DNA of 64,000 nucleotides, counting the filler, from Reclinomonas americana ATCC 50394 (Eukaryota), in assembly GCA_048213135.1 (NCBI GenBank). It is 14 parts of 14 records of this genome, joined end to end, with 100 filler letters (N's around TTAATTAATTAA, not from the genome) between each part and the next. Parts side by side here need not be neighbours in the genome. Positions count along the whole stretch, not along the records: positions 48,940 to 50,361 come from AFZH01017683.1; positions 50,462 to 54,167 come from AFZH01017684.1; 12 more parts are not named here. One strand, written 5' to 3'. The position numbers and the translations under genes are program-made. Shown piece after piece: positions 50,344 to 54,152 of this stretch; positions within the stretch are counted from its first letter, which is position 1, and each line of letters starts with the position of its first letter. Below the pieces are notes generated by a model. The model saw only the letters and a program-made list of their open reading frames with translations, did not search any database and had not been told where the DNA came from.

Positions 50344-53300
50344 GAGGAGGAGGAGGAGGAGNNNNNNNNNNNNNNNNNNNNNNNNNNNNNNNNNNNNNNN
50401 NNNNNTTAATTAATTAANNNNNNNNNNNNNNNNNNNNNNNNNNNNNNNNNNNNNNNNNNNNCGAAAACGTACTTGGATTGGCGACGTTTCTTTTCTGTCT
50501 CACCTTTTTTTCGCGACACCCCACAGACAAGCCGGAGCTCGAGTCGTTTGTGTGGTGCGACGACTACAAGGAGGATCGCTACGCCAAGTTCTGCGAGCGC
50601 AAGAAGGGCCTCGGACAGCCATGGCGGCCACATGAGCCGGTGGCGTTCTTCAGCTTCTCCAATGTCACCTCCAAGGTCGTGCGCCTGGAGGAGCCTCGTC
50701 GCGGCAAGTTTGTCGTTTTGAGTTGCGTGCTGCCCGTTGCGCCCCTGCCCTTCTCCCTCCTGCTCACGATGCGCGCAGAGTTCCTCGAGTCACGCAGCGG
50801 TGCGCAAATGGACGTGGAAGCCGTTCTGTTCAAGGGCATTCCTGGTGCTCATCCGGTCAGTGTGTGTGCTTGCTTCGCACGAGAATAGGTGAGGCATGCT
50901 CACTTGCTCCCCCCATCTCCTCCACGCAGCTGGGCGACTTGTACGGGTCGACGGCGCTGGCCGAGCGTGCGCAGGTGATGCGCGACGAACTCAAGTCGCA
51001 CATGCACTTTGACGCATCGTGGACCTCGGATCACGATCGCGAGCTGGTGGAGCTGGTTTGTGCTTATTTTGCTGGATTCCGCTATGTGCCATTTTGAGTG
51101 CCTGACGAGGTGGTCATTTGGTGATGCGCAGAGTCAAGTGTACTGCGACCGATGGGGCATTGATGTGCCGAGTGTGGACGTGTTCATGCTGCGCCCGACG
51201 ACCGAGGACCTGATGCGCTTCCCGAAGCTGCAACAAGTGCTCAAGATCGAGACCATTCGTGCTCGCCTGGCGGTGCTCAAGCACGTGAACAAGGCCCTCA
51301 CGCCGCTGCTGCGCTACGCCGATCTGTCGGACGAGACAACGTCGGATGAGCACAGCCTTGGAAGCCTGATTCTGCGACTCAAGGGCGCCATGTTCTTCCA
51401 CACCAAGGTGGGTTGTGTGGCGAGCGTGACGTCGTCTTGTCGTTTTGACACTCACGGGTCGCAACACAGAGAGCCGTGTGGGACAGCGTGTTGACCTCCA
51501 CGGTGGTGGACAGCGGGCGCGGCTACTACTCACGCAAGATGGTGATGCTCAACCGTGTCAAGGCCAACAAGCAGCGCGAAGGTGGGGAGCGGAAGAGGGG
51601 AAGGGAGATGGGAGGGAAGATAGGGAGAAGAGAAAGGGAGAGGGAGAGGGAGAGGGAGAGTGAGAGGGAGAGAGAGAGAGCTTTGCCTCCGTCGAGCCGC
51701 GATTTTTCAGTGTTCGTTTGATGTCTGCATAATTGCCTTATGTGTGTGAGAGCGAGAACGACAGTATGCATACTTGGATTCGCGTTGCCCCTTCGCTCAC
51801 CCGCGTGGCAGACCCATCCAAGGACCCCGACGGCCTGCGCTCGCTGTTCGGTCAGCTGTTCGAGGGACTGCGCAGCTTCAACGCCGACGACCTGAAGGGC
51901 GACGGCCAGCTGTGGTCGGTCAACTTTGTCGGCGAGGGTGCCATTGACGCTGGGTTCGTCGAATGTGCTCTTGTGGTCGACGACCGTCACTCGTCGTCTC
52001 AATTCCTTTCTGTCCCCTCCCAGTGGCCCGTACCGCGAGTCGATTACGCTCGCGTGCGCCGACCTCATGTCGAACTGCACGCAGCTGTTCATCCAGAGCC
52101 CCAACGGTCGTCACGGTCTCGGCATCAACCGCGAAAAGTTTGTACCGAACCCCGGCGCCACGTCCAAGCTGCATCTCGAGATGTACCGCTTTGTGGGCGT
52201 CCTCATGGGCATCTCGCTGCGCACGCATCATTCGCTGTCGCTCGACTTGCCCTCCATTGTGTGGAAGCAACTGGTTGGTGGTAGTGCCCCGCCGTGTGCC
52301 TCTTCTTTTGGGTTTCCAACTCATGCGTGCACGCATGCAGCTCGAAGAGGATGTCGACAAGAGCGATCTGGAGGCCATTGACAAGCTGTGCGTGCAGGCG
52401 CTTGACGAGCTGAAGAAGATCGACAAGGACGCGTTCGAGGATGTGTTTATGGAGACGTTCTGCACGCAACTCTCCAACGGTCAGGAGAAGGAGCTGAAGG
52501 AGGGCGGCAAGCTGATTCCAGTGACGTTGCGTGCCTGGACAAGGGAGAGAGAGCTCGCACAGACAATTATGTGTACCCACTCTTTTGTTTCTTGTGCAGC
52601 TATGCGTCGCGCGAGGAGTTCGCGCAGCTGGTGTTGCAGACGCGGCTCTCCGAGTCGCATGCACAGATCAAGGCCATTCGCACTGGTCTGTCACAGATTG
52701 TGCCGTACCGCCTGCTCAAGCTGTTCTCGGGCACGGAGCTGGAGTTGATGAGTTGCGGCAGTGACCGGAGCGACAGGATCATCAATCCTGTAGACTCATC
52801 GTTGCTTTCTTTGATGTGCGTGTCGCAGTCTGTGGCAAGCCCGACATTGATGGTTTGTTACTGACTGCATCACTGTTTGAGCATTTATCTGTGTCTCTTA
52901 CGCACTCCTATGCAGTCTCCGTGCTCAAGCGCCACACCAAGTACTCGGGCCTGTCGGCCTCCACGCCTGTCGTGCAGTACTTGTGGCGCGCCCTGGAGTC
53001 GTTCTCGCCGTCCGAGCGCTGCCTGTTTTTGCGCTTTGTGTGGGGTGCGTGGAGGTGGCGAGCAGATATCAAGTGGTTTAGTGCTCAATCGTGCGTGACT
53101 CTCCCCTCCTGTTTTTCTCGCAGGCCGCAACCGCATGCCCGCTACCGAGTCCGACTGGGACACTCCATTCACGATCAATCGGTCAGTTTTTGACATGCAC
53201 TTGCTCATTTGAGATATCTGATTGACAATGTGCGTTGATCAGCTTCCGCGGTGGTGGCGAGGACTCTGATTCGACTCTGCCAGTGGCCCACACCTGCTGT

Positions 53301-54152
53301 TGCGTTATTTCAAGAGTGTGTAATTTTATGTCGTTTCTTGTGGTCTCACCAAGCAATTGTTTGTGCATAGTGTTGCGTCCGAGACGTGTGGTCCTGATGT
53401 GTGATTGCTACGTTGGTACTCACGTTTCTTCTTGCACCGCACAGCGTGCGTTGTCGTGTAATCAGTCACGCTGTTGCAACTCTTGCTTTTCGTGACTCAC
53501 CGTGTTTTTCTGTCCTCTTGTCACTGTCGTTCGTTCAAACTTGTCGTGTAGTGTGAGTACCATCGTCGTGTCGCTTTGCCTGATCTCTGTACATTTTCAC
53601 TCACTGTTTGTGTTCTTGCGTTGCAGTGTTGCGTTCCGGTCACGTCGCACAAATGATTGCTGTGTCATTTGCACTCACATTGTATTGTTGCTATTTTTTC
53701 TCTCGAAACTCTCCCACAGCTCGGTGAGTGCTCGCTGCAGTGAACGCGCCTTGCTTGTCTCTGTTACCCTGAATCCCTCACCCTTTCGCTCCTCTTGTGC
53801 GTACTGCAGCTCGGTTCGTGTTGCTGCACTGACAAACGAAAGCCGTCTTGCATGGTGTCGGTATGAGGCTTACTGAGCTGTGCGCAGATTTGCCGAACTG
53901 GAGCTCGTACGAGGTCACGCGAGAGCGGTGAGTGAGAGGCCTGCTGTCCATGGTGCTCGTCTAGTGTCTGTGACGCTCACACAGGCGTTTTGCGCGCAGC
54001 ATTCTCTTTGCGATTGTCAACTGCCAGGCCATCGACACGGATTTCAACCCGAACTCGTCTGCGGTTCGTGCGCATCACCCCCTTTCGTATCTTGATTATT
54101 ATCATGATGCTGTTTACTGACCCTCCTCGCCTGCGTCTTCCATTGCGCAGTG
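40792..54152 (+). CDS. Giant HECT E3 ubiquitin ligase with LamG/concanavalin-like and SPRY domains (spans four gaps; both ends missing)
   Basis: LamG at about 44550-45400 (ITMELWL, KWHHIAAVYDG, LAGYFKLNE). SPRY at about 49270-49860 (SGKWYWEV, IGV, FFPAVS). HECT at about 51810-54063 (VNFVGEGAIDAGGPYRE, LFIQSPN, FVGVLMGISLR, FLRFVWGRNRMP, LPVAHTCFFSLDLP, ILFAIVNCQAIDTDF). That all contigs form one gene is an inference from orientation and domain order. Confidence 0.85.

Follow-up and report, generated by a model that had tools for sequence, protein, structure and literature searches.

A putative chain of seven introns and six micro-exons of one to four nucleotides at the active site of a Reclinomonas americana HECT ubiquitin ligase gene

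The stretch of DNA analysed here (hereafter the window) comprises 64,000 nucleotides (nt) from Reclinomonas americana ATCC 50394, in which 14 small contigs are joined by 100-nt N/TTAATTAATTAA linkers and along which all coordinates are counted. On the contig at 50462-54167, within the 3' part of a large plus-strand gene predicted to encode a HECT-domain E3 ubiquitin ligase, the codons immediately following the catalytic cysteine appear to be dispersed over a chain of micro-exons. We consider it likely that seven ordinary U2-type GT-AG introns lie within 13 nt of coding sequence here, that the exons of 1, 1, 1, 1, 4 and 4 nt between them are constitutive and that the resulting mRNA encodes C-F-F-S-L-D-L-P, and with the same assurance we take this product to be the conserved strand found directly after the catalytic cysteine in this HECT family. 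The genomic arrangement is real as assembled, and the micro-exons themselves very probably encode conserved post-cysteine sequence.

Anatomy of the chain and the encoded strand

The chain is bounded upstream by a 56-nt exon (53243..53298) that was aligned to orthologues, carries the catalytic Cys codon at 53295-53297 and ends with L-P-V-A-H-T-C and one further T, and downstream by a 40-nt exon (53888..53927) that opens AT TTG CCG, its first two bases ending an Asp codon before L-P-N-W-S-S-Y-E-V-T-R-E-R. The 589 nt between them (53299-53887) are fully accounted for by seven GT..AG units, each 72-106 nt long, and the bases that separate these. Intron 1 (53299..53370, 72 nt, GTTGCGTT...CATAG) has CTCAC 26 nt from its 3' end and is followed by a 1-nt exon, T (53371..53371), the second base of the first Phe codon; the third base of that codon, C (53445..53445), stands alone after intron 2 (53372..53444, 73 nt, GTTGCGTC...CACAG, branch motif TACTCAC). 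Intron 3 (53446..53551, 106 nt, GTGCGTTG...GTGTAG, with GACTCAC) and intron 4 (53553..53626, 74 nt, GTGAGTAC...TTGCAG, with CACTCAC) precede the single Ts at 53552..53552 and 53627..53627, which form the first and second bases of the second Phe codon. After intron 5 (53628..53719, 92 nt, GTTGCGTT...CCACAG, with CACTCAC) a 4-nt exon CTCG (53720..53723) would supply the last base of that codon together with the Ser codon TCG, and after intron 6 (53724..53809, 86 nt, GTGAGTGC...CTGCAG, with CCCTCAC) a second CTCG (53810..53813) would supply the Leu codon CTC and the first base of the Asp codon. Intron 7 (53814..53887, 74 nt, GTTCGTGT...GCGCAG), with CTTAC/CTGAC-type branch motifs, completes the chain. 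All of these features lie on the plus strand, as do the 72-nt homology-backed intron (53928..53999) and the 64-nt exon (54000..54063), reading I-L-F-A-I-V-N-C-Q-A-I-D-T-D-F-N-P-N-S-S-A, that follow the 40-nt exon.

An initial annotation of the window had proposed this arrangement, and its coordinates, its seven 72-106-nt GT-AG introns and its six micro-exons T, C, T, T, CTCG and CTCG were all re-derived from the sequence. Joined together the micro-exons give C-F-F-S-L-D-L-P, and when all six (12 nt) are skipped the frame is kept, as had been stated, with a product C-Y-L-P from which four conserved residues have gone. The claims that the 589 nt hold no in-frame coding block and that the junction sequence is absent from the genomic DNA were likewise borne out, as no F[FNYL]x[LIVMF][DE] block occurs in any frame of that stretch and the 12-mer and 39-mer formed by joining are both absent from the 64-kb window. 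The micro-exon codons TTC, TCG and CTC rank first, first and second in usage for F, S and L in the gene, and introns are packed at seven in 13 nt of coding sequence compared with about one per 150 nt in the gene's remainder.

The 5' sites of the chain are GTTGCG (three introns), GTGAGT (two), GTGCGT (one) and GTTCGT (one), every type of which is found among 14 reference introns. As GTTGCG is also the donor of three homology-backed introns of the same gene (at 50722, 52526 and 52752), the chain units have the look of the gene's ordinary introns, and their lengths fall inside the 57-230 nt range of the homology-backed set. Acceptors are CAG in five of the seven and TAG in two, with CAG in 14/14 of the reference introns. 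The initial annotation had credited most of the introns with a CTCAC-type branch motif, and six of the seven do carry CTCAC, at 26-56 nt from the 3' end, intron 7 having CTTAC 19 nt and CTGAC 59 nt from its 3' end as branch candidates. Five of the 14 reference introns contain CTCAC; these are small numbers, and the enrichment in the chain is a weak hint that fits a need for strong intronic signals. The branch motif ACTCAC is also the reverse complement of the donor GTGAGT, and 14-nt inverted repeats are therefore found between the donors and branch regions of different introns (e.g. 53410-53423 with 53553-53566).

Exons of 1-4 nt are too short to hold an exonic signal and the introns concerned are 57-106 nt long, which leaves intron definition, the mode proposed in the initial annotation, as the only one likely to work. 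Each intron would then be recognized across itself, through a 5' splice site, an ACTCAC-type branch site and a YAG of its own. The usual U1 and U2AF contacts reach further into the exon than 1-4 nt, and at such a spacing of acceptor and donor the complexes of neighbouring introns would probably be unable to sit together. Since an acceptor and the next donor are only 1-4 nt apart and neighbours are probably not engaged at once, stepwise removal is the most likely route, in which each splice would add 1-4 nt to the upstream exon and present the next donor.

The gene in question (SPRY / DOC-like / HECT E3 ligase, 3' part, 50527..54063, plus strand) was modelled with 21 exons and 20 introns, giving a coding sequence of 1896 nt and 632 codons without a stop. 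The introns of the model are the seven of the chain and 13 further ones fixed by homology to orthologues, of 57-230 nt, 12 of which are 57-79 nt. From 5' to 3' the exons measure 193, 77, 126, 276, 112, 142, 250, 185, 152, 24, 129, 58, 56, 1, 1, 1, 1, 4, 4, 40 and 64 nt, exon size falling towards the 3' end of the gene. Two orthologues (P0024 and P0014) are colinear in tblastn over the contigs at 48940-50361 and 50462-54167, and Pfam domains were matched in translated frames by SPRY on the preceding contig and HECT on contig 50462-54167, the latter (PF00632) by a single exon-bearing frame with E 1.8e-08. Upstream domains in the scanned frames are SPRY and Laminin_G_3; RCC1 was not among the Pfam matches of these frames, the 5' part of the gene lying on other contigs.

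Relatives were sought using the 83-residue exon at 52025-52273 as query, and 23 were found, the best being 72% identical over the exon, with Reticulomyxa filosa RFI_22832 and Lapot gusevi among them; the nearest HECT relatives are environmental sequences together with these two rhizarians. Proteins of 15 relatives were compared, ten of which reach the motif, four end before it and one, the Reticulomyxa model, departs after H-T-C. In all ten the motif reads H-T-C-F-F, then S (nine) or T (one), I/L/F, D/E and L-P, and the ten-sequence alignment shows no variation at H, T, C, F, F, L, P and Y and at least 90% conservation of S. One orthologue (P0008) has FFSLD exactly, and the chain product C-F-F-S-L-D-L-P is identical to the Lapot motif. 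The fit to a post-cysteine consensus claimed in the initial annotation is supported by the 10/10 orthologues that reach the motif. The public Reticulomyxa model (P0004) is family-like up to L-P-I-A-H-T-C and then continues with about 70 unrelated residues, and so seems to fail exactly where the chain starts in the window; for this reason Reticulomyxa may also have an intron at or near the post-HTC site.

An orthologue (P0001) matches the HECTD3 structure 9r85, the closest solved structure, with E 3e-65 and the catalytic Cys aligned. HECTD3 has a spacing from Cys to L-P equal to that of the chain product and the NCxAIDxD tail in common with it, and from this match, the Pfam HECT hit and the identity of 49-59% to HECT orthologues the gene is identified as a HECT-domain E3 ubiquitin ligase with its predicted catalytic Cys in the C-lobe. 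The consensus had been described as HERC-type, which is only loosely apt: HERC2 is the name of the nearest relative in one source, but among solved structures HECTD3 comes closest and does not belong to the HERCs, and it is the family's own consensus that matters.

Uniqueness of the parse and competing explanations

The extended donor, the branch motif, the YAG and typical intron length played no part when all chains of GT..AG introns over the stretch were enumerated. With the donor at 53299 and the acceptor at 53887 fixed, 12 bases retained and introns of at least 30 nt, there are 160 chains with 110 distinct 12-mers, a single one of which yields FFS[LIFVM]D, and this is the chain of the initial annotation. 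When the ends were left free (15 bases retained, introns of at least 40 nt) one of 212 chains, with 131 distinct pentapeptides, gave FFSLD, and the next-best chains, YFSLD and FFSVN, have the greater part of this chain in common with it. The sole matching chain is also the one in which all seven introns carry an extended donor, a branch motif, YAG and a typical length. By our own estimate, made without a tool, a random 12-mer of local composition fits the pattern with a probability of about 1e-4 to 1e-5, and a chance match to the peptide given 110 tries would have a probability of about 0.003-0.02.

Counted by one strict definition, intron-like units number 226 on the plus strand of the window and 98 on the minus strand. 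Pairs abutting within 0-8 nt outside the stretch number two on the plus strand and none on the minus strand, compared with about 3.1 and 0.8 expected, and one of the two, a candidate 2-nt exon at 50798, was discarded as a false positive lying inside a homology-backed exon. For any starting unit, the probability that six abutting junctions follow one another by chance is about 9e-11, and the 64 kb hold no other run of six abutting intron-like units. A looser scan found no second chain; the search for YAG-N(1-4)-GT chains that the initial annotation had envisaged genome-wide was made here over the 64-kb window. Isolated acceptor-N(1-4)-donor sites with intron-like flanks on both sides were observed at 15744 (G) and 58399 (CCGG) on the plus strand and at 61937 (CA) on the minus strand.

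A number of points weigh against splicing of the chain as proposed. With a uniform intron penalty of 4-14 our own spliced aligner missed the chain and took a three-intron parse reading C-F-L-C-A-D-L-P, and the chain comes out ahead only if weight is given to the quality of the splice signals or to exact identity with the motif. A run of 1-nt exons was not found in the literature on single-nucleotide micro-exons, consecutive or tandem micro-exons, or micro-exons with introners, in agreement with the earlier statement that isolated 1-nt exons are known and a run of four is not. The independent DNA run consists of one 397-nt piece (51193-51589) outside the chain stretch. Identity of the model to its nearest relatives is only 49-59% over the full length, so that the comparison of intron positions covers distant relatives. 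The frame-keeping skip of all six micro-exons allows a shorter isoform, and the splicing, the order of removal and the gain of introns in this lineage are inferred, the anatomy, the match to the consensus and the uniqueness of the parse being what is observed.

The best surviving alternative, which we nonetheless hold to be unlikely, is that the 589 nt are removed as one intron, or that the micro-exons are usually skipped, to give H-T-C-Y-L-P, with the inner sites being relics or intermediates. Such splicing would preserve the frame, and 1-nt exons are intrinsically hard to include. The resulting protein would, however, be without the core strand beside the active site and four of its conserved residues, in a motif whose F-F and L-P do not vary among the 10/10 orthologues, whose S is almost as constant and whose C-to-LP spacing is that of HECTD3. 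An intron of 589 nt would also be 2.6 times as long as the longest homology-backed intron (230 nt; 12 of the 13 are 57-79 nt), and relics would neither preserve exactly 12 consensus bases in preferred codons nor keep donor, branch and acceptor intact in all seven units.

That the locus is a decaying paralogue or an assembly artefact, so that its arrangement would be uninformative on splicing, we regard as improbable. The assembly is fragmented, with 14 contigs in 64 kb, the independent reads cover 51193-51589 and not the chain, and the true 3' end of the gene is not fixed at the contig end. Against these stand 632 codons over 21 exons without stops or frameshifts, and seven distinct units with intact signals, which are free of repeats and of arrays recognized by TRF and whose BLAST matches do not exceed 12 nt, leaving an assembler nothing to collapse or chain. 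An exact conserved peptide is, moreover, not a product of assembly errors.

The three-intron parse (introns 53299-53551, 53553-53626 and 53628-53877, separated by two 1-nt exons and ending at a GAG acceptor), although it keeps the motif spacing and was chosen in spliced alignment to P0024 at intron penalties of 4, 6, 8, 10 and 14, is very improbable, as it matches the first F alone of the invariant F-F-S, requires introns of 253 and 250 nt, places its GAG acceptor directly after a branch-like CTTACTGAG where reference acceptors are uniformly CAG, and still needs two 1-nt exons, so that it is no simpler in kind. Because the uniform-penalty aligner missed the chain and also misplaced two weakly conserved introns, we treat its result as a rival and not as support.

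Origin of the introns and other features of the window

A MAFFT alignment of the seven units has 47% column identity with the signal columns alone conserved, blastn-short found no match longer than 12 nt among the units or elsewhere in the 64-kb window, and TRF reported no tandem array. On these results the units are neither tandem copies nor members of a repeat family visible in the 64 kb, and an introner origin finds no support there. The repeats flanking introns 1 and 6 (TGTTGCGT and CAGCTCGGT) are explained by consensus donor or acceptor plus repeated coding bases. In intron 3 a 10-nt direct repeat lies near both ends (53451-53460 and 53541-53550) and was reached by 0/2000 shuffles; it is the only flanking or terminal repeat left without explanation.

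One genomic relative, locus L012, which has a 167-nt intron (4810-4976), carries the motif uninterrupted. A closer relative (P0156, 79% identical over one exon) is without the two introns (52752-52828 and 52853-52915) that bound a 24-nt exon of the window (52829-52852, plus strand, codons C-G-K-P-D-I-D), with the intron after F-V-W-G in common. As P0156 is uninterrupted there, these two introns seem specific to the lineage of the window. The uninterrupted motif of L012 and the missing flanking introns of P0156 together point to introns having been gained in the window's lineage and concentrated at the 3' end, although the evidence is thin. The L012 intron lies 1 nt off the window intron 52752-52828 (phase 0 versus phase 1), at an E-L-[LM]/[VI]-C-G junction, an offset to be explained either by intron sliding or by independent gain at nearly the same site. 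An intron-gain hotspot at the active site, as suggested in the initial annotation, is plausible but thinly supported, by L012; the other loci were selected for a contiguous HTCFF and are therefore not independent evidence. Contiguous HTCFF is present in 73/80 metagenome loci; these add little, since the scan pattern itself demanded it and most look like intronless transcripts. An apparent intron after HTCFF in locus L068 was rejected as a 1-nt frameshift in a contiguous motif.

Taken one step further, we think it reasonably probable, with somewhat less confidence than in the chain itself, that the spliceosome of R. americana joins a run of 1-nt exons as a matter of routine and that seven unrelated introns built up within 13 nt beside an active-site codon. 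If true, intron definition would leave both the length of exons and the distance between consecutive introns without a lower bound, and the seven introns would imply gain that was local and repeatable at this pyrimidine-rich site, not random insertion.

At the end of the contig, following N-P-N-S-S-A, a strong intron-like unit on the plus strand forms a possible 87-nt intron (54064-54150, GTTCGTG..TACTGAC..GCGCAG), after which a possible 3-nt exon TGG (54151-54153, plus strand) is followed by a donor-like GTTCGTGTTGC running into the contig end. The GGTTCGTGTTGCT after TGG shares 13 identical nt with the beginning of chain intron 7, and the contig stops there. A W is conserved among the orthologues a few residues past NPNxSS, and TGG may be a 3-nt exon with yet another intron behind it; the alternative at 54064 is read-through into an open 18-residue C-terminal tail.

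The longest intron of the gene (51582-51811, 230 nt) is filled by a GA/GAGAGG-type microsatellite, and similar purine-rich repeats at several contig ends may be the reason for the assembly breaks there. Elsewhere in the window, at 8133-33629, a unit of about 6.5 kb is copied on four contigs, 83-89% identical and all on the plus strand, representing either paralogous genes of one family or a repeat that has been collapsed or expanded. A zero-gap acceptor/donor junction, CTCAG|GTGCGTAT, occurs within these copies at 18988 and 25247. A tandemly repeated coding region at 55043-56077, with copies 83-93% identical at several offsets, lies in a 464-residue open frame with weak Pfam matches to RRM_3 and SSSPR-51. 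Neither the Pfam comparison of 70 long frames nor a search with a YeeE/YedE-like frame pointed to a taxonomic placement, and Rfam yielded no hit.

Comparison with known micro-exons and recursive splicing

The literature treats single 1-nt exons as rare curiosities. If the chain is real, recognition of splice sites needs no exonic context, the binding footprints of an acceptor and of the donor that follows it can overlap, and an essential catalytic motif can be put together one base at a time by splicing in ordered steps. The locus, of about 700 nt, would then be a compact natural substrate for studying intron definition, splicing order and minimal exon size; it is also a concrete case for how introns are gained, and a stress test for gene finders, given that a uniform-penalty spliced aligner failed on it.

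Constitutive 1-nt exons are described in plant APC11 and VPS55, with their inclusion demonstrated by reverse transcription PCR and RNA-seq (Guo & Liu 2015, PMC4674806; Yu et al. 2022, PMC8831610), by which the spliceosome can evidently handle an exon of this size. As in the chain, one coding base lies between two canonical GT-AG introns, relatives hold that base within a larger exon, and the micro-exon is missed by annotation pipelines. The plant exons are isolated, with normal exons on either side, whereas the exons of 1, 1, 1, 1, 4 and 4 nt proposed here are predicted from the genome and consecutive, with no longer exon among them. The closest approach described in plants is a pair of adjacent micro-exons, of 5 and 12 nt, in rice (PMC8831610). 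In Fusarium CYP621A a 1-nt exon was confirmed with SRA reads (Nelson & Syed 2026, PMC12940212), and it too was inferred from orthologues, contributes one base of a codon in a conserved, functionally constrained motif and is flanked by short introns; it is a single micro-exon, in contrast with the six in a row predicted in the window.

In Drosophila, the zero-nucleotide ratchet points of recursive splicing (Duff et al., bioRxiv 10.1101/006163; Joseph et al. 2021, PMC8605326) likewise have juxtaposed acceptors and donors that are used in sequence, with a 5' splice site regenerated at the end of the growing exon. Ratchet points keep zero bases and are described in large or long introns, whereas each junction of the chain would keep 1-4 coding bases that are needed for the motif, and each of its units, though short, is a complete intron equipped with a branch site. 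Defined by zero retained bases, ratchet points do not include the junctions of the chain.

For intron gain the nearest parallels are the introners of Micromonas and Aureococcus and the hot spots of Daphnia, which offer a route to the gain of many introns in one lineage and to recurrent gain at identical positions. Introners form families whose members are nearly identical, whereas the seven introns here share splice signals only, have no copies in the 64 kb and include a single one, intron 3, with a terminal direct repeat. Set beside these systems, the chain is a new extreme of a known kind.

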